Source: Escherichia phage dw-ec
Length of the DNA: 64,000 nucleotides
Direction: 5' to 3' (one strand)
Sequence record: OL739525.1
The position numbers were made by a program, and so were the translations under genes. This document shows, in pieces, positions 50,821 to 63,206 of the stretch. Below the pieces are notes generated by a model. The model made no database searches. It had not been told where the DNA came from and was given only the letters and a program-made list of their open reading frames with translations. Position 1 is the first letter of the stretch. Every line of letters starts with the position of its first letter.

Positions 50821-50850
50821 AAATGATAATCATTCTCATTTAGAGAATGA
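50821..50850. promoter_or_regulatory. Fur-box-like element with TCATTCTC-attta-GAGAATGA palindrome
   Basis: AATGATAATCATTCTC matches 15 of 16 positions of the Fur-box core AATGATAATCATTATC. Confidence 0.5.
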
Positions 50851-51098
50851 CGCGCAGGGGCGGTGTTTGTCTCGCGCTCCCGTGTCCCCTCGCCATGTAA
50901 TAAGAATAACAGATCCAGCCAGGAAAGCAAGCGATTATTTTATCTTTACATTTCTTTACAAATATATAGCGCCCAGCCTACCGGCGATCAACCTTCCAAC
51001 CAGCGCCCTGGTATGTTAGCCCCGCCTTTACGCCGTGGGGTGGCGCTTCCTCTTCTGTATGTAAAACAGTATAAGCCCGATCCCTGGGCTTGTCAAGA

Positions 51099-51365
51099 TT
51101 ATTTTTTGTTTTCTTGCCAGGATAGGACACCTAACCAAAAATACATATCGCCCCGCGCCCCTGGTGGTATCTTGCTTTCCCCGCCGCCACTGCAAGCCCA
51201 TAGATAACCATTTGCGAACGTATCAAAATGATCTATCTCTTCCACCTTATGATCGCCCAGGTTGAGAACGGTTTCAACCTTTAAGCCCGTTGCGCTTGCT
51301 ACCTGGTGCACCGTGCCGCCTTGCCAGCCCAATGAGTGCATAAGGTGTAATGTAGTAGTTGTCAT
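51099..51365 (-). CDS. hypothetical protein in GC-rich island
   Basis: 88 aa ORF with protein-like composition; surrounding 50860..51560 noticeably GC-richer than the rest of the window. Confidence 0.4.
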   Translation of the reverse strand: MTTTTLHLMHSLGWQGGTVHQVASATGLKVETVLNLGDHKVEEIDHFDTFANGYLWACSGGGESKIPPGARGDMYFWLGVLSWQENKK

Positions 51366-51474
51366 GGTGTCGCCCTTTCTTTGTTGTGCGCCCTGGTTGG
51401 CGCGGTAGAAAGATGATAGCCTTTTCCTTTATATATAGCAAGCAAAAAGAAAATAAAAAAGATTGAAAAAGTGG

Positions 51475-51503
51475 TTGACGTTCCTCACCTGGTAGCGTAG
51501 TAT
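51475..51503 (+). promoter_or_regulatory. sigma70-like promoter (TTGACG-17-TAGTAT)
   Basis: Upstream of 51639..51836. Confidence 0.4.
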
Positions 51504-51638
51504 TCATCTTGTCGAGGGGGGCGCGGCACAACGACAATAAAAAACAGGAGGGCGCAATGTAGGACGGGCAAAGGTGAGGATCTCCATAATCCACCGTCAA
51601 CCAACAAAAAACATCATTCATCACCTGGAGTTAAAATC

Positions 51639-51842: not shown

Positions 51843-51904
51843 TTGACAACAACCAACAACCTGATAAGATGTATCACATAGGGCGGCGGAATGGTCCACC
51901 GCTC
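51843..51904 (+). promoter_or_regulatory. promoter-leader cassette P1 (TTGACA-16-TAAGAT + leader stem-loop)
   Basis: -35 51843..51848, -10 51865..51870, then GTATCACATAGGGCGGCGGAATGGTCCACCGCTC hairpin and AGAAGAGAG leader. Confidence 0.7.
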
Positions 51905-51927
51905 ACAACAGAAGAGAGATTATAATC

Positions 51928-52200
51928 ATGGCATCATATAGCGCAACAATGATCGTAGCTGGCACCACTGGTAAACCTATGAGCGGTGGCGGATCTTTCG
52001 CAAATATCAACATTGACGGGCGTTTATCCCTGGACGCAGCGATCACCGTGGCGCGGGAAACATTTAAGAAAGAATGTAAATTCAATAAACAAGATTATCT
52101 CGGTTTTGCTATTGAAAAAACCGCGCGTTTTGTTGATTATAAAAGCCCAAAAATGGTTGATACTACACTAAAAGCGCAAGATGTAGCGTTTTTGCTTTAA
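51928..52200 (+). CDS. hypothetical early protein
   Basis: 90 aa ORF downstream of P1. Confidence 0.55.
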   Translation: MASYSATMIVAGTTGKPMSGGGSFANINIDGRLSLDAAITVARETFKKECKFNKQDYLGFAIEKTARFVDYKSPKMVDTTLKAQDVAFLL

Positions 52201-52203
52201 GGC

Positions 52204-52259
52204 TTGACATTAACGAATAATTTGTTAATATGTTACATAAAGCGGGAATAGTTCCCGCT
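52204..52259 (+). promoter_or_regulatory. promoter-leader cassette P2
   Basis: TTGACA, TAATAT, hairpin GCGGGAA-tag-TTCCCGC. Confidence 0.65.
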
Positions 52260-52276
52260 ATTTGTAAGGTGGTAGA

Positions 52277-52534
52277 ATGTTTTACATCAAATTAAAAGGT
52301 CACGTGATCGCGTTCAAAGATAACGCTTTTTACAGATTAGCAAAATATGCGTTAATACATCCCCACTATGTTTATATAAGGGGGCGTGATGAAATAAATA
52401 TCTTTGATCAAACAACATGCGAAAACATCGAGATCCGCAAGGTTGGCGTACGTGATTATCGTACATCTTTCTACCCTTGCAAGGATTCAGCAAGTCTTTT
52501 CAAAGTATGCCAATTGTTGAAAAAAGGTGGTTAA
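52277..52534 (+). CDS. hypothetical early protein
   Basis: 85 aa ORF. Confidence 0.55.
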   Translation: MFYIKLKGHVIAFKDNAFYRLAKYALIHPHYVYIRGRDEINIFDQTTCENIEIRKVGVRDYRTSFYPCKDSASLFKVCQLLKKGG

Positions 52535-52535
52535 T

Positions 52536-53093
52536 ATGGGCCGCGAATATGTGATCCAGTCTTGGGTAAAACATGAAGCAGATGATCCGCGCATCATTCC
52601 CGATCATCTTATCGATGAATCCACGGGATATAGCGGTGAGCAAATAGGTAACAGATTAGCACGTAGTAACGGCAACGTAAAAGCGCGTTATGTGCGCCCT
52701 GGTTGGCTGGCAAATGGTAATGCTGATTTATCCAGTGCGGAAGATGCGAGCGACGGCGCGAAAGATAATCCTTTGTACAAAGTTGATCCGGCTTTTCGTG
52801 TCCTGGATGAATACCCCAGCAAGATAGCGGCGCTCGATCAGGCCCTGGAAAGTAAGCGCATCACCTGGACCGCTTACAACATGGCAAAAAACGTACTTGA
52901 TGGTAAATTGATTCAAGCTGAAAGAAAATTAGCCAAAATTGCAGCCATAGCCCAGGAGGAAGACGAGGAGACAACGGAAGAGGAAGAGTACGAAGAGATC
53001 CCGCCGTTGTTGTGTGTTGATGCTTTTCCTGATTATCAGCCGACAGAGGAAGAAAAAAGGATCGCACTAGAAAACTTTGAAAATAGTCTTTGA
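52536..53093 (+). CDS. hypothetical early protein with acidic C-terminal region
   Basis: ATG at 52536 after AGGTGG; E-rich segment. Confidence 0.55.
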   Translation: MGREYVIQSWVKHEADDPRIIPDHLIDESTGYSGEQIGNRLARSNGNVKARYVRPGWLANGNADLSSAEDASDGAKDNPLYKVDPAFRVLDEYPSKIAALDQALESKRITWTAYNMAKNVLDGKLIQAERKLAKIAAIAQEEDEETTEEEEYEEIPPLLCVDAFPDYQPTEEEKRIALENFENSL

Positions 53094-53148
53094 CATATCG
53101 CCGCCACTGGCATAATATTTACCACGTAGGGCGGCAATGGTGCCGCTC
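53090..53148 (+). promoter_or_regulatory. promoter-leader cassette P3
   Basis: TTGACA-17-TAATAT, hairpin GCGGCA-atgg-TGCCGC. Confidence 0.65.
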
Positions 53149-53175
53149 ATAGTAAAATTATGCAAGAGGTTTGCA

Positions 53176-53271
53176 ATGATTAATAAAGAAAATAGCTTGA
53201 CGGTTGGAACGATTAACGCTATCATTTTCGCCGTTCCATTTTGGGTTGTAGTAGCGGCTATTATTTTCTAA
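53176..53271 (+). CDS. small hydrophobic peptide (31 aa)
   Basis: Not in ORF track; ATG after AAGAGG; MINKENSLTVGTINAIIFAVPFWVVVAAIIF; lies between cassettes P3 and P4. Confidence 0.35.
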   Translation: MINKENSLTVGTINAIIFAVPFWVVVAAIIF

Positions 53272-53280
53272 AAAATATTC

Positions 53281-53341
53281 TTGACAACGTTTTTTAATCT
53301 GATAAGATGTATCACATAGGGCGGCGGAATACTTCCCCGCC
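53281..53341 (+). promoter_or_regulatory. promoter-leader cassette P4
   Basis: TTGACA-16-TAAGAT, GTATCACATAGGGCGGCGGAATACTTCCCCGCC. Confidence 0.65.
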
Positions 53342-53362
53342 AAAACAAAAAAGGGTAACACA

Positions 53363-53725
53363 ATGAGCAAGCAAATCAGTACTATCATGTTTAATCTGGT
53401 ATCTTTCCGCGATGATATGAAAAATTTACCACGTGAAACGGTTGATATTCATGTTTCAGCTTATCGCGCCCTTATTGACATGTTACCGCTAAAACGTGAT
53501 CAACATGCCGCTAATATGATGCTTAATGCTATGCTTAAAAAGATGATTCAAACGGATCTCACCCTGGCATATGAGTATCAAGGGCGCTTATATGCAACTT
53601 ACAACAAAGCGGTACCTGGTTTGGGAAGTACCGAAGAGTTGCACGGCTTAAACCTGGATCAAAACACTTGGGATAGTATGCGCCGCGTTATGGTATGGGC
53701 CGAAAGCGGTAAAATTTACGAATAA
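53363..53725 (+). CDS. hypothetical early protein
   Basis: 120 aa ORF. Confidence 0.55.
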   Translation: MSKQISTIMFNLVSFRDDMKNLPRETVDIHVSAYRALIDMLPLKRDQHAANMMLNAMLKKMIQTDLTLAYEYQGRLYATYNKAVPGLGSTEELHGLNLDQNTWDSMRRVMVWAESGKIYE

Positions 53726-53731
53726 AAACGG

Positions 53732-53788
53732 TTGACACTGTTTAAACTTCTGGTATAGTTTATCACGTAGGGCGGCAATGGTGCCGCC
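53732..53788 (+). promoter_or_regulatory. promoter-leader cassette P5
   Basis: TTGACA-16-TATAGT, hairpin GGCGGCA-atgg-TGCCGCC. Confidence 0.65.
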
Positions 53789-53808
53789 AACAATAAAAGG
53801 TTAACATC

Positions 53809-53988
53809 ATGGCTATCATTGCAAAAACTGAGATTATAGGTTTAGATTCGATCCTCCTGGCTTATGAGGAAACTTTAAAAATGTATATAGTGACCTATGG
53901 TGATTATGTGCGTGAATACGAATACATTGATCTTGCTTTCGAATGTTACATTCGCCAGGTCAATAAAGCCTATAACGATTATCGTTAA
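53809..53988 (+). CDS. hypothetical early protein (59 aa)
   Basis: Not in ORF track; starts MAI like neighbouring cassette genes; hand-translated. Confidence 0.45.
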   Translation: MAIIAKTEIIGLDSILLAYEETLKMYIVTYGDYVREYEYIDLAFECYIRQVNKAYNDYR

Positions 53989-54007
53989 AAGTTTTAGTCT
54001 TATACTA

Positions 54008-54060
54008 TTGACAATGAGTGATAGTATAAGCATAATAACTTTTATCGGGAATACTTCCCA
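54008..54060 (+). promoter_or_regulatory. promoter-leader cassette P6
   Basis: TTGACA-17-CATAAT, hairpin GGGAA-tac-TTCCC. Confidence 0.6.
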
Positions 54061-54085
54061 CTAACCAAAAAGAGAGAGTGACACC

Positions 54086-54451
54086 ATGGCTATTAATATC
54101 AATGTTTCCGCTTATGCTACCCTGGCTAACACGGCTAAAATTGAATTATCCAGCATTGAGGCGGTGCATATTAGCGCCCGTCGCTGGTTTCAACGGTCCT
54201 ACGGTAACACATATTTTTCTTTAATGGTTGACGTTGAGATCGGCGGTAAACTGATCGAGGTGGTTAACGTTCCGTTTCAATATGGCTATGGTGATCATTT
54301 TGATACCGTCGCCCTGGAAGAATTTAGCAAGGTTATCAACCTTGAGGGCAAGGAATTTTCACGCGGCGCGTATCTTTCCCGTTTTTGCCGTGACAATGGG
54401 ATCACTGTATACAGTCATGCAAGCGATGTAAAACGTAAAAAAGATTTATAA
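54086..54451 (+). CDS. hypothetical early protein
   Basis: 121 aa ORF. Confidence 0.55.
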   Translation: MAININVSAYATLANTAKIELSSIEAVHISARRWFQRSYGNTYFSLMVDVEIGGKLIEVVNVPFQYGYGDHFDTVALEEFSKVINLEGKEFSRGAYLSRFCRDNGITVYSHASDVKRKKDL

Positions 54452-54456
54452 AAGCA

Positions 54457-54517
54457 TTGACAGCACGAATAAAAAGAGTAAACTGTATTACATAGAGAGC
54501 GGGAATAGTTCCCGCCT
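54457..54517 (+). promoter_or_regulatory. promoter-leader cassette P7
   Basis: TTGACA-16-TAAACT, GTATTACATAGAGAGCGGGAATAGTTCCCGCC. Confidence 0.65.
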
Positions 54518-54539
54518 CATTCAAAGAGAGATTATCATC

Positions 54540-54779
54540 ATGGCTATTACTAAAACTTACAACGGTCACAAAAACAAAACTCACTGGAATGTAAGCCTTT
54601 GGATTAATAACGATGAATCGTTATACCGGTTGGCCCAAGATTTTATTAACGCTAATGCTAATCGTAATGATGCGGCGCGGGATATGATGCTTTTTCTGGA
54701 ACAAACTGGACAAGATAAAACGCCAGACGGTTTCAAATATAGCACTACTGCGATCCGTGCCGCGATGGTTGGAATGTAA
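54540..54779 (+). CDS. hypothetical early protein
   Basis: 79 aa ORF. Confidence 0.55.
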   Translation: MAITKTYNGHKNKTHWNVSLWINNDESLYRLAQDFINANANRNDAARDMMLFLEQTGQDKTPDGFKYSTTAIRAAMVGM

Positions 54780-54788
54780 TAAAAACAG

Positions 54789-54849
54789 TTGACAACGTTT
54801 AAAATTAGTGTAAGATGTATCACATAGGGCGGGAAGTGGTTTCCCGCCA
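54789..54849 (+). promoter_or_regulatory. promoter-leader cassette P8
   Basis: TTGACA-16-TAAGAT, hairpin GGCGGGAA-gtggt-TTCCCGCC. Confidence 0.65.
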
Positions 54850-54869
54850 AAACAGAGAGATTAAAGATT

Positions 54870-55097
54870 ATGGCTATCAATATTGTTCGCGTATCCGGCA
54901 CCGTTGGCACTTCCCAGGTCATTGCAGTTGTAACAAACAAAAAGATTAATGATGTATGTGAGATCTTGAATAAGTGGGCTGTTGCTAATTTTGGGGAATA
55001 TGCAAGCGTCGAGTACATCGAATCCTACCAGGTGCCAACCATCAGCCTAACCGATCTCAACGTTGATCGCCTGTTATGCCTGGATGAATTAATCTGA
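54870..55097 (+). CDS. hypothetical early protein
   Basis: 75 aa ORF. Confidence 0.55.
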   Translation: MAINIVRVSGTVGTSQVIAVVTNKKINDVCEILNKWAVANFGEYASVEYIESYQVPTISLTDLNVDRLLCLDELI

Positions 55098-55106
55098 AAA
55101 AGATTG

Positions 55107-55164
55107 TTGACACGGGAAAGAAAAAGAGTAAACTGTATTACGTAGGGCGGCAATAGTGCCGCTC
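55107..55164 (+). promoter_or_regulatory. promoter-leader cassette P9
   Basis: TTGACA-16-TAAACT, hairpin GCGGCA-atag-TGCCGC. Confidence 0.65.
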
Positions 55165-55187
55165 ACAACAGAAGAGAGATTATCACG

Positions 55188-55400
55188 ATGGCTAATATCC
55201 GCACACTGTTAAAAAATGCAAGTCAAGTTTTATTTTCTGATCACGATCATTTTAATAAAGATATTACAGGCGTGAAGAATATCAAAGATGTAAAAAGTGT
55301 TATGGGTATATATTGCAATGTTAAACGTGTTGGAACGTTCGGTGATAAAGTATTGTATCAATCAGGTGATTACAATTTTACTTTGACGATTATTTCATAA
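55188..55400 (+). CDS. hypothetical early protein
   Basis: 70 aa ORF. Confidence 0.55.
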   Translation: MANIRTLLKNASQVLFSDHDHFNKDITGVKNIKDVKSVMGIYCNVKRVGTFGDKVLYQSGDYNFTLTIIS

Positions 55401-55406
55401 AACCGC

Positions 55407-55468
55407 TTGCAATACTGCAAAAATAAAGTAAACTGTATTACATCAAGGCGGCGGAATGGTCCACCGCC
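55407..55468 (+). promoter_or_regulatory. promoter-leader cassette P10
   Basis: TTGCAA-16-TAAACT, hairpin GGCGGCGGAATGGTCCACCGCC. Confidence 0.6.
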
Positions 55469-55492
55469 TAACAAAGAGAAGAGGAAAACATC

Positions 55493-55660
55493 ATGATCAC
55501 TTTCGCTACCCGTGAAGCCGCTCGCAACGTTGCCCGTAAAGTTAACGCCGCCAACCTGGGCGCTACGTTTAAAGCACCTGTAAAAGATGAATCAGGAAAA
55601 TGGATCTTCCCTGGTCTGCGTCACGCTGATAAGCTAGGCACTTTAAGCCTTAAAAAATAA
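55493..55660 (+). CDS. hypothetical early protein (55 aa)
   Basis: Not in ORF track; MITFATREAARNVARKV...; shares MITFA start with 55735..55956. Confidence 0.45.
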   Translation: MITFATREAARNVARKVNAANLGATFKAPVKDESGKWIFPGLRHADKLGTLSLKK

Positions 55661-55663
55661 TCG

Positions 55664-55701
55664 TTGACTTTTCGTTATAGCGCCCATTATAAGGCGCTAT
55701 A
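55664..55701 (+). promoter_or_regulatory. promoter-like element P11 with distinct hairpin
   Basis: TTGACT then AGCGCC-cattataa-GGCGCT hairpin overlapping the -10 region. Confidence 0.4.
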
Positions 55702-55734
55702 GAGAAGAGAAACCACTACTAACAAGGAAACATC

Positions 55735-55956
55735 ATGATCACTTTCGCTATTGTCGCCGTTGTTGCTGGTCAGGTTTACGTAAACGATACATTCACCACA
55801 GAAGACAAGGCCGCAGGAGACATAACCGCCGTTTACAATGAGTGCAAGGCAGTAGAAAGAATGTTAGCGCCTTGTATGCTAATGAGTGAACGCCAGGACG
55901 GGATAACAGTATTTACTAACATTGAAACAGGGTACCAAATGGTAGTAACAAAATAA
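55735..55956 (+). CDS. hypothetical early protein
   Basis: 73 aa ORF. Confidence 0.5.
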   Translation: MITFAIVAVVAGQVYVNDTFTTEDKAAGDITAVYNECKAVERMLAPCMLMSERQDGITVFTNIETGYQMVVTK

Positions 55957-55959
55957 AGC

Positions 55960-56018
55960 TTGACACGGATTTAATTTTCAGTAAACTGTTACACGTAGAG
56001 CGGGAATAGTTCCCGCTC
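55960..56018 (+). promoter_or_regulatory. promoter-leader cassette P12
   Basis: TTGACA-17-TAAACT, hairpin GCGGGAA-tag-TTCCCGC. Confidence 0.65.
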
Positions 56019-56035
56019 AAAAAGAGAGAAAGACC

Positions 56036-56389
56036 ATGAAAGCACAAAATGCAATTAAAGAGTACATCCTTGCCGCTATCGATTTTAATGATTACGGTAT
56101 TACAACCGAAAAAGAGAAGATCGCGGAATTGATGCGCCGTTTTAATTCCGAGTACTGGTACCCTGATAACCAATCACGTTTTAATTATAGTATTGTTAAA
56201 GCACTTGCATCATGGTTACAAGGTTTGCCATCAGATATCAATATCGCTTTCGAATATTGGGAAATTGATCGCCTGTTAACATCCTGGGGATACATTAAAG
56301 AGAATAGCAGCGATGATAAAATCCAACGAGAAAGGGAAAATTATTGGCTTTATATTGCAGGCGTGATCCTTGCTTGCTCTTATGAATGA
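56036..56389 (+). CDS. hypothetical early protein
   Basis: 117 aa ORF. Confidence 0.55.
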   Translation: MKAQNAIKEYILAAIDFNDYGITTEKEKIAELMRRFNSEYWYPDNQSRFNYSIVKALASWLQGLPSDINIAFEYWEIDRLLTSWGYIKENSSDDKIQRERENYWLYIAGVILACSYE

Positions 56390-56395
56390 TAAACC

Positions 56396-56449
56396 TTGAC
56401 AATTTTACAAAACAGTTTAAATTAATAATATAGCGGCAATGGTACCGCT
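56396..56449 (+). promoter_or_regulatory. promoter-leader cassette P13
   Basis: TTGACA, AT-rich -10 region, hairpin GCGGCA-atgg-TACCGC (one mismatch). Confidence 0.5.
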
Positions 56450-56468
56450 CATATAAAGAGGAAACAAA

Positions 56469-56615
56469 ATGAATACATCTAATCGCGCAGAAAAAATTCA
56501 ATCTTCCAAGATCCGCAAGGCCTGGAATGAGGAAGTGATCCGCAAAGGCGACAAGCGCAATAAAACAAAGCGCGGGAAGAGTGACAAATATAATTGGATG
56601 GATTTAGAGAATTAA
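56469..56615 (+). CDS. small basic protein (48 aa)
   Basis: Not in ORF track; ATG after AAGAGGAAA; Lys/Arg-rich. Confidence 0.4.
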   Translation: MNTSNRAEKIQSSKIRKAWNEEVIRKGDKRNKTKRGKSDKYNWMDLEN

Positions 56616-56621
56616 CATAAC

Positions 56622-56650
56622 AAGGGCGCACCAAGCGCCCTTTCTTTTTA
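56622..56650 (+). terminator. rho-independent terminator
   Basis: GGGCGC-accaa-GCGCCC followed by TTTCTTTTT; near-identical copies at 61964 and 62529. Confidence 0.7.
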
Positions 56651-56670
56651 CATGTAGAGGATAAACAAAA

Positions 56671-56856
56671 ATGACTTTAAACGAGCTTAAAACAGCGTAC
56701 AGCGCAACATTAAAAATAGCCGTGCGTTACCGTGACGAATACGGTTTTATTGCGCAGGGCGTGATCCTGGGCTTTTCTGACGATGGTTTGATCTATGTTG
56801 ATGCACATTATAACAAGGTTAAACCGGAAAACGTTATTAGCATAAAATATCTTTAA
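56671..56856 (+). CDS. hypothetical early protein
   Basis: 61 aa ORF. Confidence 0.5.
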   Translation: MTLNELKTAYSATLKIAVRYRDEYGFIAQGVILGFSDDGLIYVDAHYNKVKPENVISIKYL

Positions 56857-56862
56857 AAACGG

Positions 56863-56922
56863 TTGACACCATAACCGGACCTGTTAAACTGTATTACATC
56901 AGGCGGGGAATAGTTCCCCACC
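56863..56922 (+). promoter_or_regulatory. promoter-leader cassette P14
   Basis: TTGACA-16-TAAACT, hairpin GGGGAA-tag-TTCCCC. Confidence 0.65.
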
Positions 56923-56941
56923 ATACAAAAAGGTAAATATT

Positions 56942-57148
56942 ATGATCACCGCAAAACAAGAAAAAATCATTATCGACGTTGCAGCCGTTGCCGCTATCGC
57001 TATTATTGGATCTTATTATGATACCCGTTTCCCGTCGGCTATGCATGAGGTCGCCGCCGTTGCATCAGTTGGCGTACTGTTTTACGTTGGTAAACGCTAT
57101 TTATCACCAATGATTAACAAGCTGACACCGTGGAAAAATAAAGGTTGA
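56942..57148 (+). CDS. small membrane protein
   Basis: 68 aa; hydrophobic segment IIIDVAAVAAIAIIG. Confidence 0.5.
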   Translation: MITAKQEKIIIDVAAVAAIAIIGSYYDTRFPSAMHEVAAVASVGVLFYVGKRYLSPMINKLTPWKNKG

Positions 57149-57201
57149 TCCTGTTTTACATTGTGTTATAGTTATCGTGTAGGGCGGCAATGGTGCCGCG
57201 C
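57145..57201 (+). promoter_or_regulatory. promoter-leader cassette P15
   Basis: TTGATC-16-TATAGT, hairpin GCGGCA-atgg-TGCCGC. Confidence 0.55.
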
Positions 57202-57219
57202 CCCTTTGAGGATGCAATC

Positions 57220-57504
57220 ATGAGTAAAGCTAACACCGTGCTAATGTTTTCCCTGATTAATGATCTCGCTTACTTGTCCAACATGACGCAGGAGGGTAAC
57301 ACATTAACGGCAACATTCACCAATAAGCTTGACCGAGTGATCATCATCTCACTGAAAACAGTTAGTAAAGGCTTTTACTCGTTAGCTTATCATTGGATCA
57401 CCGATACCGATGAGACAAGCCAGGACTATAGCGCCCCTTTCCCTGAATCAATGGCACGGGAGATCATCGCCGCCGTTATAAATGATGGTTTGTTTACTGC
57501 ATAA
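57220..57504 (+). CDS. hypothetical early protein
   Basis: ATG at 57220 after GAGGA; track start 57190 lies inside the leader hairpin. Confidence 0.5.
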   Translation: MSKANTVLMFSLINDLAYLSNMTQEGNTLTATFTNKLDRVIIISLKTVSKGFYSLAYHWITDTDETSQDYSAPFPESMAREIIAAVINDGLFTA

Positions 57505-57521
57505 ATAATTTAGAAAAAGGC

Positions 57522-57578
57522 TTGCAATCATTTTGAGATAGTGTATATTTAATTCATAGGGCGGCGGGAATAGTTCCC
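57522..57578 (+). promoter_or_regulatory. promoter-leader cassette P16
   Basis: TTGCAA, TATATT, hairpin GGGAA-tag-TTCCC. Confidence 0.55.
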
Positions 57579-57601
57579 AAAGCAAACGAGAGGATTACAC
57601 G

Positions 57602-57721
57602 ATGAGCAAGTACACAGTAGAATACACGGTAGAAAATCCGGCAGTATCCGAAGGTAAAAAGATGACATTTGCCATCAGTATAATCGCTTTCGTTGTCACT
57701 ATCTTATCAATCATCTTATAA
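57602..57721 (+). CDS. small membrane peptide (39 aa)
   Basis: Not in ORF track; ATG after GAGAGGA; C-terminal TM helix FAISIIAFVVTILSIIL. Confidence 0.35.
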   Translation: MSKYTVEYTVENPAVSEGKKMTFAISIIAFVVTILSIIL

Positions 57722-57731
57722 GGTGCACACC

Positions 57732-57893
57732 ATGAAAACAACAGACATTATCAAAGAGATCGCCCTTGCCGCTGGCGTTGAAGTCGAGGAAGTGATCGCG
57801 CTCAATCTTACAGAAAACGATCTGCGCAACTATGAAGCGGAAAGCGTGAAAGCAAGCGGCGCGGTCCTGGTATATGATCCGGCTAACAAGTAA
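57732..57893 (+). CDS. hypothetical early protein
   Basis: ATG at 57732 after AAGGTG. Confidence 0.45.
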   Translation: MKTTDIIKEIALAAGVEVEEVIALNLTENDLRNYEAESVKASGAVLVYDPANK

Positions 57894-57902
57894 GGGGATA
57901 AC

Positions 57903-58013
57903 ATGAATCCGAAAGATATGCAAGCATGGAAAGGGTACGACGATCTAAGCGCCTTGCGCAATAAGTCAAGCCGTAACCTTAGACGGTTGGAAGCAAAGAA
58001 AAAGAAAAAATAG
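57903..58013 (+). CDS. small basic protein (36 aa)
   Basis: Not in ORF track; ATG after AAGGGGA; Lys-rich tail. Confidence 0.3.
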   Translation: MNPKDMQAWKGYDDLSALRNKSSRNLRRLEAKKKKK

Positions 58014-58014
58014 T

Positions 58015-58071
58015 TTGACAAGTCCGCCTAGTCTGATAATATGTATCTTGTAGGGCGGCAATGGTGCCGCT
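58015..58071 (+). promoter_or_regulatory. promoter-leader cassette P17
   Basis: TTGACA-16-TAATAT, hairpin GCGGCA-atgg-TGCCGC. Confidence 0.65.
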
Positions 58072-58091
58072 CACAAGAAGAGAGAAAAATC

Positions 58092-58376
58092 ATGAAAATC
58101 ACAAAAAGCCTAACTAATTATGCAGCACGTCGCGGATTATGTTTAACCGTTGAAAACTTAGGGAAAGAAGACTTTTTGTGTTTTTGGGAGCTTGAAAATG
58201 ATTGCGAGTGGATGTTTTCTTATTCTATCTGCGAAGATCAAAACGGTTGTTTGTTAACCTGGCGCGGTAATATCTATTTACCGGAAGAAATTAAAGAAGA
58301 GTTACCAGGTACGATCATGACAGAGAGACAGCTTAAGGAAATGATTAATTTTGTAGGGCAAAACATTAAAAAATAA
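58092..58376 (+). CDS. hypothetical early protein
   Basis: ATG at 58092 (track start 58041 overlaps the leader hairpin). Confidence 0.5.
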   Translation: MKITKSLTNYAARRGLCLTVENLGKEDFLCFWELENDCEWMFSYSICEDQNGCLLTWRGNIYLPEEIKEELPGTIMTERQLKEMINFVGQNIKK

Positions 58377-58377
58377 T

Positions 58378-58440
58378 TTGACAGCACGCAAATAACGTAG
58401 TAAAGTTTATTACATAGAGCGGCGGAATGGTCCACCGCTC
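58378..58440 (+). promoter_or_regulatory. promoter-leader cassette P18
   Basis: TTGACA-17-TAAAGT, hairpin GCGGCGGAATGGTCCACCGC. Confidence 0.65.
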
Positions 58441-58461
58441 ACAACAGAAGAGAAACAAATC

Positions 58462-58632
58462 ATGATCCCGACTATGTTTTATGTATCGCGCAAAGGTCAC
58501 AATATTTTTTGGTCTGAAGATTTAAATGAAGCTATGACGTTTGCCCGTGATCGTGTTGCTATCGGTGGCGTTAACATCACCGTAACCGATGAAAACGGCA
58601 TTGAATACTATAACGGCGACAATGAAGAGTAA
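58462..58632 (+). CDS. hypothetical early protein (56 aa)
   Basis: Not in ORF track; hand-translated without stops. Confidence 0.45.
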   Translation: MIPTMFYVSRKGHNIFWSEDLNEAMTFARDRVAIGGVNITVTDENGIEYYNGDNEE

Positions 58633-58639
58633 TCAACAA

Positions 58640-58657
58640 GGCGGGATTAATCCCGCC
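58640..58657 (+). other. intergenic stem-loop (GGCGGGAT-ta-ATCCCGCC)
   Basis: Perfect 8-bp stem between two small genes; no U-tract. Confidence 0.5.
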
Positions 58658-58676
58658 TGTATTAAAGGGCAATATA

Positions 58677-58814
58677 ATGAAAACTTTCAACGCAACAGCC
58701 TCGACAATTGGTTATATTATTACAGTACAAGCCGTTGACCTGGTAGCGGCAGCAAACAAGATTAAAAAAATGATCCCAACAGGCAGCGAATTTTCCGTTT
58801 GGGAAGTAAAATAA
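58677..58814 (+). CDS. hypothetical early protein (45 aa)
   Basis: Not in ORF track; hand-translated. Confidence 0.4.
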   Translation: MKTFNATASTIGYIITVQAVDLVAAANKIKKMIPTGSEFSVWEVK

Positions 58815-58817
58815 AGC

Positions 58818-58880
58818 TTGACAATAATTTGTTATCTAGTAAAGTGTATTACGTAGGGCGGGGCAATGGTGCAACGCCCA
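58818..58880 (+). promoter_or_regulatory. promoter-leader cassette P19
   Basis: TTGACA-16-TAAAGT, GTATTACGTAGGGCGGGGCAATGGTGCAACGCCC. Confidence 0.6.
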
Positions 58881-58897
58881 TTAATGAGGGTAGAATC

Positions 58898-59002
58898 ATG
58901 TTAGAGAAAATTTTCACGGTTGCAGTGGTTGGCCTGGCGTTATCGGTTGGAGTAGTTGCAACTATGGCTAATATGATCCTATCTTCCCACGGTATCGGTT
59001 AA
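58898..59002 (+). CDS. small membrane peptide (34 aa)
   Basis: ATG at 58898 after GAGGGTAGAA; MLEKIFTVAVVGLALSVGVVATMANMILSSHGIG. Confidence 0.35.
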   Translation: MLEKIFTVAVVGLALSVGVVATMANMILSSHGIG

Positions 59003-59003
59003 G

Positions 59004-59228
59004 GTGAAACAAATGATCACGAACAAAACAGGCAAAACGGAATTTTTACGCGGCTTACAAGTTGGTAAGCCTGAGATCTGGCATTGCACGAAGTCCGCGC
59101 ATAATGAAATGAAAGATTTTACCGCTACTTTACAACGTGTTAAAATATCTATCACACAGAAAAAAGCCTTGTTAGTAGTAGAAAACGAGATCCCGCAAAC
59201 TATTATTATTGTCGAGCGTACAGCATGA
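59004..59228 (+). CDS. hypothetical early protein
   Basis: 74 aa ORF. Confidence 0.5.
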   Translation: MKQMITNKTGKTEFLRGLQVGKPEIWHCTKSAHNEMKDFTATLQRVKISITQKKALLVVENEIPQTIIIVERTA

Positions 59229-59611
59229 AAACAGAAATCATTATTGAAATCATCAACGGCTATAAAGAAGCCTTTATTTTTGCTGAATCAGCAAGGGATC
59301 ATGAAGGTAATTTTATTGATAACTTAGACGATTATGATTTTTCTCCTAGCGCGGATCAACGGATCGCCCAGGATGTAACAGCCTTTATTAATGCTAATCT
59401 TGCCGCTATCTCTGAGGCAATGAGCGACGGCGCAACAGCCAACCAGATCGGGAATGATTTACATTTTACCCGTAACGGTCACGGCGTAGGCTTTTGGGAT
59501 CGCCCTGAAATATACACCACTAACACGGCGAACCGCCTAACCAATGCAGCTAAGTTTATGCCGAACGTGTCGGCTTACATTGGTGAAGATAATTTGATTT
59601 ATATTGAATAA
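59225..59611 (+). CDS. hypothetical early protein
   Basis: 128 aa ORF. Confidence 0.55.
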   Translation: MKTEIIIEIINGYKEAFIFAESARDHEGNFIDNLDDYDFSPSADQRIAQDVTAFINANLAAISEAMSDGATANQIGNDLHFTRNGHGVGFWDRPEIYTTNTANRLTNAAKFMPNVSAYIGEDNLIYIE

Positions 59612-59617
59612 AAAGTA

Positions 59618-59675
59618 TTGACACAGATCGCCAGTGTGATAATATTTACCACGTAGGGCGGCAATGGTGCCGCTC
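59618..59675 (+). promoter_or_regulatory. promoter-leader cassette P20
   Basis: TTGACA-16-TAATAT, hairpin GCGGCA-atgg-TGCCGC. Confidence 0.65.
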
Positions 59676-59694
59676 ACTGTAAAAGGTAAACATT

Positions 59695-59886
59695 ATGAAA
59701 ACTATCACCTATCTGGAATCGAATAACATGTTTTTTGCGCCCGTTGATGAAATCATCGAAGCATTAAACAACGAGGAAGGGATCAATGGTTTATCTTATA
59801 GCCAACTTTTAGGAATGGTTGCAGCAAATGCAGAGCTTGCTTACTATGTTGAAAATTTTGATGAAGCTGTAATCTTTACAAAATAA
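59695..59886 (+). CDS. hypothetical early protein
   Basis: 63 aa ORF. Confidence 0.5.
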   Translation: MKTITYLESNNMFFAPVDEIIEALNNEEGINGLSYSQLLGMVAANAELAYYVENFDEAVIFTK

Positions 59887-59889
59887 TCC

Positions 59890-59946
59890 TTGATCTAATC
59901 TCTTAAATAACTTATATTTAATGCGTAGGGCGGCAATGGTGCCGCC
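59890..59946 (+). promoter_or_regulatory. promoter-leader cassette P21
   Basis: TTGATC-17-TATATT, hairpin GGCGGCA-atgg-TGCCGCC. Confidence 0.55.
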
Positions 59947-59964
59947 GATAATGAGGAAAGTAAA

Positions 59965-60264
59965 ATGGAAACTATCGCTATTGTTACCGTAGAAAAACTG
60001 GTTGTTGGTGATGTATTCGCGTTAATGGTGCCTAACAGCAGCAAGCTGGGCGCTTATGAAGTAATGGATCATAAAAATGAATCATTTGGCGACGGTTGCA
60101 CAATGGCGGTAAAATCTTTAAAGGATGGAATCATCCGTCAAGCTAATTGGCACAAAGGAAATCAAGTCGGATTAATATCAGCTAATTTCTTGCCAGAAGA
60201 GCAAACGTTAGACCAACTGTCAGGCGGTAAGACGTTAGCCGAACTACTGGAAACAGCGATCTAA
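59965..60264 (+). CDS. hypothetical early protein
   Basis: 99 aa ORF. Confidence 0.55.
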   Translation: METIAIVTVEKLVVGDVFALMVPNSSKLGAYEVMDHKNESFGDGCTMAVKSLKDGIIRQANWHKGNQVGLISANFLPEEQTLDQLSGGKTLAELLETAI

Positions 60265-60272
60265 TCAACAAA

Positions 60273-60288
60273 GGGGCGGCAACGCCCC
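60273..60288 (+). other. intergenic stem-loop (GGGGCG-gcaa-CGCCCC)
   Basis: 6-bp GC stem with GNRA-type loop, no U-tract. Confidence 0.5.
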
Positions 60289-60308
60289 ACGTCAGAAAGG
60301 AAAAGATT

Positions 60309-60545
60309 ATGAGTATTGCAACAGTATTAAACGCCGTTAAAACCGCTGAATCATCCGGCTTACATGTTGAGCTTATAGATCAACCAGGTGGCGATCTCCT
60401 GGTCCAGGTTTACCCGCCGAAAGTAGGGGATGATTATTATTGGTGCTATTCCGATACGTTCGAACAAGTAGACACGAAAGCGATCACGGCTTTTATTTTA
60501 AAAGCTATTGAAGAAAATAATTTTCATTATAACATCAATCAATAA
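60309..60545 (+). CDS. hypothetical early protein
   Basis: 78 aa ORF. Confidence 0.5.
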   Translation: MSIATVLNAVKTAESSGLHVELIDQPGGDLLVQVYPPKVGDDYYWCYSDTFEQVDTKAITAFILKAIEENNFHYNINQ

Positions 60546-60554
60546 ACCATAAGC

Positions 60555-60570
60555 GGGGCGGTAACGCCCC
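60555..60570 (+). other. intergenic stem-loop (GGGGCG-gtaa-CGCCCC)
   Basis: Same stem as 60273 with a different GNRA loop. Confidence 0.5.
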
Positions 60571-60600
60571 ATTAAACGCAATAGGAAGAGGCTAGAAAGC

Positions 60601-60885
60601 ATGAAAAAGATGATCGCAGTAGTTGCCCTGGTTGTTGGTATTAACGCGCCTGTAATGGCGAAAGAGTTGCCAGAATCCATCACGTTAACCGATATTAACG
60701 CAGTGAACCGGATCGGCGTTAATTATCGCCTATGCCTTGCCGCTAAAACTTTCCAGGACGGCACAACAGAGTACTACGGATTCGAGGGTGTCCGGTGCGG
60801 TGAGCTTGCACGCGACCTTAAGGAAGATCCAGACCTTGAGGCCATACCGATGACCGTAAACGGTAAAGCCCAGGTAAACCGCTAA
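60601..60885 (+). CDS. secreted/periplasmic protein
   Basis: Signal peptide MKKMIAVVALVVGINAPVMA. Confidence 0.55.
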   Translation: MKKMIAVVALVVGINAPVMAKELPESITLTDINAVNRIGVNYRLCLAAKTFQDGTTEYYGFEGVRCGELARDLKEDPDLEAIPMTVNGKAQVNR

Positions 60886-60887
60886 CC

Positions 60888-61022
60888 ATGAGAAAGGTAA
60901 TCATCACAATGGGGATCGTAGTAGCAACGCTGGCGCTTATCCCCTTCCTGGTTGAATATGTGCTGATTAATGTTGTCCTGGTAGTCAGTGACCTATTGGA
61001 AACGGTTGGCAACTGGTTTTAA
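60888..61022 (+). CDS. small membrane peptide (44 aa)
   Basis: Not in ORF track; ATG after GAGAAAGG; two hydrophobic segments. Confidence 0.35.
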   Translation: MRKVIITMGIVVATLALIPFLVEYVLINVVLVVSDLLETVGNWF

Positions 61023-61197
61023 GATAAATAAACAGGGCTTGCTTTTGTCCTGTTTTTTGTTATGCTTATTGAACGGGCGGCACCTGGGAGCAGGGGAAGA
61101 TAATCACCGGAAGACCCCGCTATATATTGATAGCTAACATCTATCAAACAACAAAACATCAAAGGAATAAACTATCAAATCTTTACAATCCCACCTA

Positions 61198-61254
61198 TTG
61201 ACACCGGATCACGCTTACATTATTATTTATCACGTAGGGCGGGAATGTTTCCCA
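61198..61254 (+). promoter_or_regulatory. promoter-leader cassette P22
   Basis: TTGACA-17-TATTAT, hairpin GGGAA-tgt-TTCCC. Confidence 0.6.
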
Positions 61255-61274
61255 CCTGATTTAGGAGTCATATC

Positions 61275-62095: not shown

Positions 62096-62515
62096 ATGAA
62101 CATTAAATCAAATAATCCAGCTTACTCCTTCGATAACGCTTTTTGTCACGGTAGCGCCGCCAAAGGCTTCGAAATCGATGGTAAATTGGTTATCGTGAAC
62201 GTTGACGGGGAAGAGGTTGCAGTGTATCCGGTAAACGATGTTAAAAGCCGTTTACAATGCCGTATGGATGTTACCGCATATCAGCTTGATCCGATCCGTG
62301 TAGTTGCCCTGGTATTAGAGGAAGAGATCAAAGCAATGCATCACAGTAATAAGTTTATTGGTGACGCGCAGGATAATATGAACGTTTGCCGCCATAAAGT
62401 TAATGAAGCACTGAAAGAATGCGGTTTTAAGGATCTGATGATCAAACGTGATGAAAAATTCCGCTTTCGTAATGACCTGGCAAACCGGATCTACTCAATC
62501 TATGAAGCGTTATAA
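62096..62515 (+). CDS. hypothetical early protein
   Basis: 139 aa ORF, last gene before the non-coding A+C-rich region. Confidence 0.55.
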   Translation: MNIKSNNPAYSFDNAFCHGSAAKGFEIDGKLVIVNVDGEEVAVYPVNDVKSRLQCRMDVTAYQLDPIRVVALVLEEEIKAMHHSNKFIGDAQDNMNVCRHKVNEALKECGFKDLMIKRDEKFRFRNDLANRIYSIYEAL

Positions 62516-62528
62516 TTGACAACAAAAC

Positions 62529-62556
62529 AAGGGCGCACCAAGCGCCCTTTCTTTTT
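62529..62556 (+). terminator. rho-independent terminator
   Basis: GGGCGC-accaa-GCGCCC followed by TTTCTTTTT; identical core to 56622. Confidence 0.7.
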
Positions 62557-63130
62557 GCCCGAACAATGTTGATAGCTTTCGCCTATGAAAAACCGACACA
62601 GAACAAAATTGAATAAATCGCGGTATCGAGCTAATCAACCATTAAACGAATAACCATACCTCCCAGGGTAACAGGCTGTTAGAGAGCCATTTATAGCGGT
62701 TAAAATCGATCAACAACCAACAACAAACCATCAAAAACACCCTTCTACCTCCTTTCTAGTGCAATGATAACCATTATCATCTACCCATGATTATCTATGC
62801 AATATAAGCGCATAATTATAATGTTGATAATAGTTCGCAACAACTAACCAACAAACAACATAAAACAATAAGCAAACTAATCATAATCAAAGGAATAATA
62901 GCAAGATGATTGATAACGACAAACAATCAAACCATGATGAATACTAAGCAAAATAACGATAACACGACAAAACAACCAACTAACGAACAATAACAAACGA
63001 AACCATTAAAATAATAACTATTGCCATAATAGTGACTGAATGAAATCATTACAAAACGAATCATTCACAGGATCATCATTAGCACGCTATGCCGGACACA
63101 TAGCGAGCTAATAATAAGCCAACTACACCC
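62557..63130 (+). other. ORF-free, strongly A+C-skewed non-coding region
   Basis: No ORF of 60 aa or more in any frame from 62516 to the window end; plus strand dominated by A and C with CAA/AAC-type triplet runs. Confidence 0.7.
62765..62779. promoter_or_regulatory. palindrome TGATAA-cca-TTATCA
   Basis: Inverted repeat of Fur-box-like hexamers. Confidence 0.4.
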
Positions 63131-63138
63131 CAACAATC

Positions 63139-63206
63139 ATAACCATCGGTGATGGTTATTTCTTGTTACTGCGTAGCTTGCAATAATTGCAAGCGTAATG
63201 ACGCTT
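63139..63206. repeat. cluster of three distinct palindromes
   Basis: ATAACCATC-ggt-GATGGTTAT (63139..63159), CTTGCAAT-a-ATTGCAAG (63177..63193), AAGCGT-aatg-ACGCTT (63191..63206). Confidence 0.7.

Follow-up and report, generated by a model that had tools for sequence, protein, structure and literature searches.

Between the larger genes of one phage gene array lie several very short open reading frames (ORFs), and the question is whether these are genes and, if so, what their products might do. The window analysed here, a stretch of 64,000 nucleotides of Escherichia phage dw-ec (OL739525.1), belongs to a Phapecoctavirus (a phAPEC8-like E. coli myophage), with 97.8% identity to BI-EHEC over the region. 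An earlier note had listed six mini-ORFs, four of them encoding peptides with a single predicted transmembrane helix (here m1 to m4) and two encoding small basic proteins (b1 and b2), and all six are present with an ATG start (Table 1). To judge from conservation and context, they are almost certainly real small genes. The best explanation of the whole, which we consider probable, is that of genuine tiny genes belonging to an accessory, presumably early array, with a proposed role at the envelope.

Array layout and earlier annotation

The array comprises about 19 repeated units, each formed by a sigma-70-like promoter, a GC hairpin and a ribosome-binding site; by promoter consensus, it is presumably sigma-70-driven and hence early. 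A literature search for ribosome profiling, proteomics or transcriptome studies of this phage group found none. m1, m2, m3 and b1 are the first cistrons after a promoter-hairpin unit, while b2 and m4 are downstream cistrons of such units. The first ATG of m1, m2 and m3 lies 19-30 nt past the hairpin (30 nt in the case of m1), a spacing that matches that of 15 larger genes, and reading of the sequence places b1 likewise after its hairpin. The RNA folds of the m1 and m3 units reach -18.2 and -17.6 kcal/mol, respectively (z -3.1 in both), and the hairpin of the m2 unit is weak (-7.8 kcal/mol, z -0.7). Typical intergenic spacers measure 71-97 nt, and all six oversized gaps (198-389 nt) between 53 and 61.3 kb are occupied by these SD-led mini-ORFs together with one further ORF of 45 aa. 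SD motifs (AGAGG, GAGAGG, GAGGG, AAGAGG or AAGGGG) are found 6-9 nt 5' of five of the six mini-ORF starts; m4 lacks a good SD.

Table 1. Coordinates of the mini-ORFs and associated features in the window.
Feature	Position	Strand	Description
m1 promoter-hairpin unit	53090..53148	+	TTGACA, 17 nt, TAATAT, hairpin GGGCGGCAATGGTGCCGCTC
m1	53176..53271	+	31-aa peptide MINKENSLTVGTINAIIFAVPFWVVVAAIIF; SD AGAGG
b1 promoter-hairpin unit	56396..56449	+	TTGACA, 16 nt, TAAATT, hairpin AGCGGCAATGGTACCGCT
b1	56469..56615	+	48-aa basic protein, T7 gene 1.1 family; Pfam PF08200, PHROG 2490
Terminator-like element	56622..56650	+	Intrinsic-terminator-like hairpin and T-run (AAGGGCGCACCAAGCGCCCTT TCTTTTT), immediately 3' of b1
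m2 promoter-hairpin unit	57522..57583	+	TTGCAA, 16 nt, TATATT, weak hairpin; precedes m2, 53-aa gene and b2
m2	57602..57721	+	39-aa peptide, predicted tail-anchored, first cistron; SD GAGAGG; PHROG 10979 'membrane protein'
53-aa gene	57732..57893	+	Between m2 and b2; PHROG 35944
b2	57903..58013	+	36-aa basic peptide, third cistron of m2 unit; SD AAGGGG; PHROG 31652
Further ORF	58677..58814		45 aa, gap-filling
m3 promoter-hairpin unit	58818..58879	+	TTGACA, 16 nt, TAAAGT, then hairpin
m3	58898..59002	+	34-aa predicted membrane peptide, first cistron of three-gene unit; SD GAGGG; PHROG 14631
Two genes 3' of m3	59013..59611	+	71 aa (PHROG 5988) and 128 aa (PHROG 1915), same unit
94-aa gene	60601..60885	+	Directly 5' of m4; signal-peptide-like N-terminus MKKMIAVVALVVGINAPVMA
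m4	60888..61022	+	44-aa hydrophobic peptide, followed by terminator; PHROG 16005
Terminator-like element	61030..61062	+	Intrinsic-terminator-like hairpin and T-run, 3' of m4

The description of these ORFs as unannotated is true only of the 60-aa ORF track, since identical or near-identical coding sequences (CDSs) are annotated in GenBank relatives and five of the six match a PHROG family. Both DE16 and tuntematon carry such CDSs of 96, 147 and 120 bp, the first of which, also annotated in KKP 3954, is m1; tuntematon has in addition a 111-bp CDS, and the 114-bp CDS of DE16 is m4 called seven codons shorter. The Phapecoctavirus CDSs of these three phages are 93-100% identical to the ORFs of the window. 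Annotation of the mini-ORFs among relatives is nonetheless patchy, and of 34 annotated records sampled, 17 (phAPEC8 among them) lack a CDS for m3. For rV5, Table S3 of Kropinski et al. 2013 (PMC3606486) gives ORF170/gp165 and ORF173/gp168 the entry 'membrane protein, 1 TMD', and a further gene appears there under Phage_1_1. The first is a direct homologue of m4 (61% identity) with the same neighbour, the 94-aa gene followed by m4, and the second a direct homologue of m3 (50%), followed by the 71-aa gene as in the window and annotated 12 codons longer than m3. Apart from such start calls, these copies do not differ in kind from the ORFs of the window. The mini-ORFs are ordinary and already catalogued: public phage records contain identical or related copies under the label of hypothetical or membrane protein.

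The predicted membrane peptides

A single hydrophobic segment of 17-19 residues is found in each of m1-m4; its Kyte-Doolittle mean is 2.3-2.7 and its summed Hessa insertion energy is negative, in agreement with the one helix per peptide proposed earlier. The length of each predicted helix suffices to cross the inner membrane. In their diverged homologues the insertion energy is also negative, except for the m2 copy of PMBT28 (+0.95). From the position of the helix at the extreme C-terminus, m1 and m2 are predicted to be tail-anchored, with a cytoplasmic N-terminus. m1, the sole gene of its transcription unit, is hydrophilic at its N-terminus (MINKENSLTVGT), and its hydrophobic helix reaches the C-terminal residue. 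It is uninterrupted in seven relatives (lowest identity 70%, in phi92; dN/dS 0.2-0.5) and is matched by tblastn in 107 phage records, with no match in PHROG or Pfam. In m2, 20 hydrophilic N-terminal residues with a conserved motif precede a variable C-terminal helix. Its homologues in Justusliebigvirus (36-38% identity) and in the unrelated Salmonella phage PMBT28 (51%) are also 39 aa long, the invariant residues are M1, V6, Y8, N12, P13, A14, G18 and I28, and dN/dS is about 0.27-0.29 with saturated dS.

m3 shows the inverse arrangement: its variable helix (residues 5-21) comes first, and the C-terminal part, ATM(A/S)NMILSS(H/N)GIG, is nearly invariant. It occurs in 150 phage records spanning Stephanstirmvirinae and Vequintavirinae, shares 50-53% identity and 17 invariant columns with its counterparts in rV5 and Murica (dN/dS 0.24-0.30, dS >1), and is adjacent to the 71-aa gene in both. 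m4 starts 2 nt past the stop codon of the 94-aa gene (TAAccATG), which makes translational coupling to that gene probable. The pair is retained in rV5 as gp166-gp165, and the replacement of M8 by L in gp165 favours the 44-aa start of m4 over the 37-aa start called in DE16. m4 is present in 74 phage records (dN/dS 0.32 at dS 0.88), and its 29 protein clusters are, every one, phage-derived or unnamed. The 94-aa protein has two conserved cysteines and an AF2 model with a pLDDT of 78, for which a fold search of the PDB gave no structural match below E 0.09.

According to the proposed mechanism, unmodified host RNA polymerase would transcribe the genes early in infection, and m1-m4 would insert into the inner membrane, where they would bind envelope proteins of the host (or of the phage) as small partners. 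Contact would be made through the conserved segment, soluble or interfacial, with the variable helix serving mainly as an anchor, and b1 and b2 would be soluble basic peptides with putative partners. We infer that m1-m4 may thereby modulate the host envelope, as non-essential accessories of host takeover or superinfection exclusion. Pfam, NCBIfam, the PDB, large protein searches and the structure model of the 94-aa neighbour gave no functional clue, and no result singled out a target among the host division, transport or defence proteins suggested in the earlier note.

With 31-44 aa, one helix and few charges, m1-m4 resemble small membrane toxins. The hydrophobic peptides could accordingly be membrane-damaging effectors of the type I toxin or pinholin-like kind, which depolarise or permeabilise the inner membrane to stop host metabolism, and the strong consensus promoters that precede them would suit such a function. 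We regard this as unlikely, because Pfam and NCBIfam hold no toxin, holin or other family match, no lysis gene is found among the annotated neighbours, and the m2 N-terminal motif and the m3 C-terminal part are conserved outside the helix core, which points to specific contacts and not to bulk membrane activity.

A working analogy for the binding-partner role of m1-m4 comes from small early membrane proteins of T4, a virulent E. coli myophage: Imm and Sp, which act in superinfection exclusion, and Ac, which is linked to acriflavine sensitivity. These are short, with one or two helices, non-essential and envelope-acting. m1-m4 are shorter and likened to them by analogy only, no similarity having been found and Pfam giving no match at E up to 1. 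Their size class, single helix and short conserved soluble segments are also traits of AcrZ and MgtS, which are host-encoded and unrelated in sequence to the phage peptides. T4 Ac is thought to act on AcrAB-TolC (PMC13250531), and AcrZ and MgtS are small membrane proteins of bacteria whose role is to modulate larger ones (reviewed in PMC12648545).

The basic proteins and the coding status of the set

The two proteins reported as small and basic are so, with 14 K/R against 7 D/E in b1 and 12 K/R against 4 D/E in b2. For b1, membership of the T7 gp1.1 family is the better description: it matches Pfam PF08200 (Phage_1_1) with an E of 4.9e-13 and 49.8 bits (cut-off 21), and is small and very basic like the rest of that family, for which the PDB holds no structure. 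Its homologues occur in 131 phage records, one of them from Autographiviridae, and it is uninterrupted in relatives at 58-61% identity. In the T7-like phD2B, tblastn places a b1 homologue directly 3' of the RNA polymerase gene, the position of gene 1.1. Unlike T7 gene 1.1, b1 forms a unit of its own, complete with promoter and terminator, and the phage that carries it is a 150-kb myophage; the homologous stretches of relatives have no annotated phage RNA polymerase gene. b2 is a basic peptide confined to Phapecoctavirus (58 records, by name nearly all of this genus), and the case for it is weaker than for the other mini-ORFs. Its frame is retained in WPEC2 and PsgM04F, where the C-terminus varies.

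For the set as a whole, the conservation in relatives that the earlier note had proposed as a check was found: start, frame and length are retained down to 40-60% amino acid identity (4-10 relatives compared per mini-ORF), dN/dS is about 0.2-0.3 for m1-m4 at dS from 0.3 to >1, the codon-usage score is highest in the claimed frame in all six, and each ORF has homologues in 58-150 phage records. An alternative is that some of them or even all, most plausibly b2 and m4, are chance open frames in spacers, kept by conserved regulatory DNA. b2 is almost invariant among relatives, with too few differences for dN/dS, and its lysine-rich tail is encoded by an A-rich stretch immediately 5' of the -35 box of the next promoter; m4, besides its missing SD, has a codon score of about 0 that barely exceeds that of an alternative frame; many annotators left the ORFs uncalled; and a control with decoy ORFs in other frames, several of which likewise remain uninterrupted in relatives, did not discriminate at the available divergence. 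Against this stand the 40-60% identical homologues of m1-m4 and b1, which share start and length with them where synonymous sites are saturated, the dN/dS of m1-m4, the hydrophobicity preserved across substitutions, the filling of every oversized gap, the curated Pfam family matched by b1 and the conserved pairing of m4 with its upstream gene, which together make the chance reading very unlikely. It is scarcely credible that m2 and m3 are leader peptides whose act of translation regulates or couples the downstream genes, even though both come first in three-gene units, ending 10 nt 5' of the next start, and the SD and start of m1 can pair in a small hairpin that hints at translational control, since 17 residues of m3 are invariant across two subfamilies at dS >1, the m2 motif is invariant across three phage groups, m1 and b1 are alone in their units and the downstream genes have SD sites of their own.

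Possible exchange of promoter-gene modules

As genuine small genes, the mini-ORFs would be exchanged among relatives as whole promoter-plus-gene modules, which their patchy distribution fits. A parallel is offered by PeSL, the promoter-stem-loop units that flank orphan genes in T4-type phages (PMC2839356, PMC4122927). The likeness lies in short orphan genes, each after a strong sigma-70-like promoter, a GC-rich stem-loop and an SD, and in a gene order that varies between relatives; the position of the stem-loop 3' of the -10 box corresponds to one described PeSL subclass. The window phage differs in belonging to another subfamily and having another consensus, and its units are predicted from the sequence. 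Module order also differs between the window phage and ESCO9, which is consistent with shuffling.

Repeated promoter-hairpin units and the evidence for coding

The small ORFs of the presumed early region lie in an array built from a repeated unit, composed of a sigma-70-like promoter, a GC-rich hairpin and a Shine-Dalgarno (SD) sequence. This unit recurs at least 19 times between 51.8 and 61.3 kb (18 copies by pattern and the one at 56396 by eye; window positions 51843-61260), with the layout TTGACA, 16-17 nt, TAnnnT, CAyrTAGG, hairpin, SD and ATG. The hairpins, GGGCGGCAATGGTGCCGCyC and variants of it, have predicted folds of -8 to -18 kcal/mol, and would form the 5' end of each early mRNA. 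They are not a catalogued RNA, because Rfam gave no family match across the whole window. PeSLs have been defined as repeated intergenic sequences that combine a sigma-70-like promoter, a stem-loop and an SD beside orphan genes (PMC2839356), and the array, which has all of these elements, resembles in architecture the PeSL-plus-orphan-gene units of T4-type phages described there. The order and content of the genes between units vary among relatives, differences that are in line with recombination between units and lend this possibility indirect support.

Within this array, all six mini-ORFs of the earlier note, four hydrophobic (m1 to m4) and two basic (b1 and b2), are present with an ATG start. 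The ribosome-binding sites claimed for the hydrophobic ones were recovered for m1 to m3, as an SD 6-9 nt upstream, but not for m4, which has none; b1 and b2 also have such an SD. The starts of m1, m2 and m3 are the first SD-led ATG 19-30 nt past the hairpin, as in 15 larger genes, and b1 is placed after its hairpin likewise.

Small ORFs, their neighbours and example units in the window, with conservation and census counts (phage records with a tblastn match)
Feature	Coordinates	Length	Kept in relatives	Lowest identity	Records
m1, hydrophobic	53176..53271	31 aa	start, frame and length in 7 relatives	70% (phi92)	107
b1, basic	56469..56615	48 aa	intact in Stephanstirmvirinae and Vequintavirinae phage A73	58-61%	131
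m2, hydrophobic	57602..57721	39 aa	39-aa length in Justusliebigvirus	36-38% (alignment)	63
b2, basic	57903..58013	36 aa			58
m3, hydrophobic	58898..59002	34 aa	start, frame and length in 9 relatives	50-53% (rV5, Murica)	150
m4, hydrophobic	60888..61022	44 aa	start, frame and length in 6 relatives	61% (rV5 gp165)	74
Genes after m3	59013..59611	71 and 128 aa
Gene before m4	60601..60885	94 aa
Unit, plus-strand array	53090-53148
Unit, plus-strand array	58015-58072
Unit, plus-strand array	59618-59675
Further array gene	53809-53988	<60 aa	annotated
Further array gene	55493-55660	<60 aa	annotated
Further array gene	57732-57893	<60 aa	annotated
Further array gene	58462-58632	<60 aa	annotated
Further array gene	58677-58814	45 aa	annotated
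Upstream hydrophobic mini-ORF	48115-48219	34 aa
Upstream hydrophobic mini-ORF	48601-48693	30 aa

Spacers in the array ordinarily measure 71-97 nt, and all six oversized gaps (198-389 nt) between 53 and 61.3 kb hold the mini-ORFs, together with a 45-aa ORF that fills the remainder of the gap before m3. Once the mini-ORFs are counted, the spacers before promoter-led genes become 78-97 nt and the others are short junctions or terminators, with the exception of 61023-61274 after m4, which remains long. The 45-aa ORF is one of five array genes below 60 aa that are absent from the earlier note, all annotated in relatives, and two SD-led hydrophobic mini-ORFs lie in large gaps further upstream.

Comparison with relatives bears out the conservation that the earlier note had proposed as a check, since start, frame and length are kept at lowest identities of 36-70% in the five other than b2. 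When m1-m4 are set against their diverged copies, dS ranges from 0.3 to above 1 and dN/dS is 0.2-0.3. The mini-ORFs are small and conserved, SD-led in all cases but m4, and purifying selection is seen in m1-m4. When codon usage is scored as log-odds derived from the long genes of the window, the score peaks in the claimed frame for all six, with a value of only about 0 for m4 and values below those of neighbouring genes for m2 and b2. The low score of m4 would be expected if the mini-ORFs, mainly b2 and m4, were chance open frames. Some decoy short ORFs are also open in relatives, a control that does not discriminate, as too few of them have diverged counterparts at the nucleotide level. Four independent lines of sequence evidence (repeated unit, gap filling, comparison and codon usage) indicate that the mini-ORFs are more than chance.

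Hydrophobic and basic peptides

The single transmembrane helix predicted earlier for each of m1-m4 was found again as one segment of 17-19 residues with a Kyte-Doolittle mean of 2.3-2.7 (KD19), whose summed Hessa energy of -0.7 to -3.5 kcal/mol is negative, as it is in most diverged homologues. All four are thus predicted to be peptides of at most 50 aa with one insertable hydrophobic segment of at least 17 residues.

The m1 peptide has a hydrophilic N-terminus of 12 residues and a predicted helix that reaches the last residue. It is the sole gene of its promoter unit, and in ESCO9 it stands at another place in the gene order. An alternative start at ATG 53137 was rejected, as it lies inside the hairpin, has no SD and is missing from Justusliebigvirus relatives. 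The predicted fold of 53157-53180 pairs the m1 start codon within a further small hairpin (AUUAUGCAA / UUGCAAUGAU), the loop of which exposes the SD; this arrangement may modulate translation. The m2 peptide carries a hydrophilic N-terminus of 20 residues followed by a C-terminal predicted helix. Its invariant positions across three phage groups are M1, V6, Y8, N12, P13, A14, G18 and I28, so that the soluble part holds every one except I28 and the helix is freely variable. Among 1.84 billion representative proteins, m2 has three matches, namely a close relative, a frameshifted variant and a repetitive artefact. The frameshift in this metagenomic variant falls past residue 20 and removes the helix, and may stem from an error in sequencing or reflect a natural knockout.

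The opposite pattern to m2 is seen in m3, where the helix core varies and ATM(A/S)NMILSS(H/N)GIG is all but invariant. The 71-aa gene always comes next after m3, a pair also present in rV5 and Murica, and in the window the 128-aa gene comes after these as well. When taken as a TTG-extended frame of 67 aa, m3 found only 12 clusters in a large protein search, all phage or unnamed. In m4, the motif LVVSDL is invariant, and the ATG lies two bases past the stop of the upstream 94-aa gene (TAAccATG), whose product begins with a signal-peptide-like N-terminus and carries two conserved cysteines; this pair is kept in rV5 as gp166-gp165. Position 8 in rV5 is L and not M, so that the 44-aa start of m4 is conserved and the 37-aa start called in DE16 is not. 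Searched with m4 and with the 94-aa protein, a large protein database returned only close phage relatives, without product names. AF2 models the 94-aa protein as a three-stranded sheet and a helix (pLDDT 78), for which Foldseek gave no match below E 0.09 in the PDB. Readthrough or fusion of m3 and m4 with their neighbours is ruled out by their differing frames.

The description of b1 and b2 as small basic proteins holds, with 14 K/R against 7 D/E in b1 and 12 K/R against 4 D/E in b2. In addition, b1 belongs to Pfam PF08200 (Phage_1_1, T7 gp1.1), with 49.8 bits against a cut-off of 21, E 4.9e-13 and a match spanning positions 2-40 of the 40-position profile. Whereas gene 1.1 directly follows the RNA polymerase gene in T7-like genomes, a position that is no trait of the Pfam model, b1 stands alone within the small-gene array, under a promoter unit of its own and followed by an intrinsic-terminator-like hairpin. 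The T7-like phage phD2B has its b1 homologue immediately behind the RNA polymerase gene, the classical place of gene 1.1. No match to b1 was found among PDB sequences, and a literature search found no published function for T7 gene 1.1. Phage SKA64 lists this 48-aa gp1.1-like gene as 'TDP-4-keto-6-deoxy-D-glucose transaminase', probably a mis-annotation (the NCBIfam match scores 16 bits, far below its cut-off of 375). The b2 peptide, nearly invariant, comes from records of which nearly all are named as Phapecoctavirus. An A-rich stretch immediately before the next -35 box encodes its KKKKK tail, and its C-terminus differs in KKP 3954 and PsgM04F. It is probably a gene, the least certain of the six.

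Putative functions

Profile searches with the six ORFs and nine neighbours gave no Pfam or NCBIfam match except PF08200 for b1, and only families of "unknown function" in PHROG; among 5.8 billion and 1.84 billion proteins, the searches retrieved close phage relatives only. A literature search found no expression data for early genes of Phapecoctavirus or Vequintavirus. All mini-ORFs lie behind sigma-70-like promoters, amid small orphan genes, and would be transcribed early by the host RNA polymerase. The m1-m4 peptides would then insert into the inner membrane through their predicted helices and may act via conserved segments outside them, namely the cytoplasmic N-terminus of m2, the C-terminal part of m3 and LVVSDL of m4. 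They could thereby bind envelope proteins as small partners, on the model of T4 Imm, Sp and Ac or of bacterial AcrZ, with accessory roles in host takeover or exclusion.

Membrane-damaging peptides without a specific target are an unlikely alternative, since the conserved segments of m2 and m3 outside the helix core point to specific contacts. Pfam and NCBIfam gave no match to type I toxins (Hok/Gef, Ibs, Ldr, TisB and others) at E up to 1 or 0.1. As to an overlapping antisense RNA that would repress translation, the promoter-consensus scan has a minus-strand match at 53287-53260, which mirrors the -35 box of the next plus-strand promoter. The setting of the mini-ORFs does not fit a lysis cassette, in which holin, antiholin and spanin genes stand beside an endolysin and are expressed late, as no lysin was annotated or detected among the neighbours; no Pfam match indicated homology to the superinfection-exclusion proteins Imm and Sp of T4. 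Leader peptides, an unlikely alternative, would fit the position of m2 and m3 as first genes of their units, and would not fit m1 and b1, each of which is alone in its unit.

Under the preferred reading as envelope-directed binding partners, the conserved pairing suggests that m3 with the 71-aa gene, and the putatively secreted 94-aa protein with m4, each work as a unit. It is improbable, yet conceivable, that m3 with its 71-aa and 128-aa partners and the 94-aa protein with m4 represent two undescribed early envelope-directed systems common to Stephanstirmvirinae and Vequintavirinae. Such systems might serve superinfection exclusion or counter-defence, for instance, with the peptide of less than 45 aa as membrane anchor or target-binding subunit. 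Small early membrane peptides of virulent phages are a plausible source of host-envelope modulators, with m2, m3 and the 94-aa/m4 pair as conserved and clearly delimited candidates. The mini-ORFs have no feature in these data that would be unusual beside the many orphan small genes of large coliphages.

Annotation, distribution and genomic setting

The earlier note had called the mini-ORFs unannotated, which is correct with respect to the ORF track with its 60-aa threshold, but not with respect to the CDSs of DE16 and tuntematon, PHROG (five of the six) and Table S3 of the rV5 paper. DE16 and tuntematon have CDSs of 96, 147 and 120 bp, the last named "membrane protein" in tuntematon; a 114-bp CDS in DE16 is a shortened call of m4, and tuntematon has one of 111 bp. 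The PHROG matches (10979, 14631, 16005, 2490 and 31652; E 1e-15 to 1e-28) cover the whole profile in four of five cases, b1 covering positions 2-46 of 47 in PHROG 2490, and m1 has no match. In Table S3 (PMC3606486), the entry "membrane protein, 1 TMD" is given for ORF170 (44 aa) and for ORF173 (46 aa), and PF08200 for ORF189; by coordinates and locus tags, ORF170 is the homologue of m4 and ORF173 that of m3. Since the mini-ORFs fall in catalogued uncharacterised phage families, one of them a named Pfam family, they are already known.

Among the sampled rows, a CDS for m3 is absent from 17 of 34 annotated records, phAPEC8 included, and one for m1 from 12 of 28. In between a third and a half of the sampled related records, gene callers miss these conserved genes of less than 50 aa, start calls are inconsistent and a few relatives carry implausible product names, so the value is a modest one of annotation quality and a defined candidate list for small-protein study. 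The 70-aa gene at 55188-55400 is named 'phosphoribosylpyrophosphate synthetase' in several records, probably a mis-annotation.

The census counts come from tblastn against 50,697 phage records, annotated or not. Several Vequintavirus genomes (FV3, slur12, ime) carry m3 homologues at 94-97% identity, and the unrelated 48-kb Salmonella phage PMBT28 has an m2 homologue of the same length at 51%. The region 53000-61200 matches Escherichia phage BI-EHEC over its full length at 97.8% identity and other Phapecoctavirus genomes (DE16, Mt1B1_P17, tuntematon) at 96-97%; the window therefore derives from a phAPEC8-like 150-kb E. coli myophage. More distant nucleotide matches are found in Justusliebigvirus (phi92, PD06, ESCO9; about 82-88%) and, for parts of the region only, in Vequintavirinae (rV5, Murica, FFH2; about 77-80%). 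Records named as Campylobacter, Acinetobacter, Pseudomonas and Klebsiella phages also match, three of the checked ones at 96-98% identity (Campylobacter phage B15, 96.1%; Acinetobacter phage ABPW7, 98.2%; Klebsiella phage ZCKP1, 95.9%), and their host labels may be unreliable.

The GC skew changes sign near 44 kb, from where plus-strand genes run onward. After the 139-aa gene 62096..62515, about 1.5 kb (62516-64000) hold no convincing ORF on either strand, and the rV5 paper remarks on a 'non-coding', ORF-free stretch after rV5's own 139-aa gene, gp159 (PMC3606486). Finally, a 1.35-kb segment of low coding density between plus-strand genes (50284-51638) contains a 29-bp tandem repeat of 2.9 copies (50763-50847), and the 88-aa minus-strand ORF at 51099-51365 equals in length a minus-strand 267-bp CDS at the edge of the DE16 stretch.
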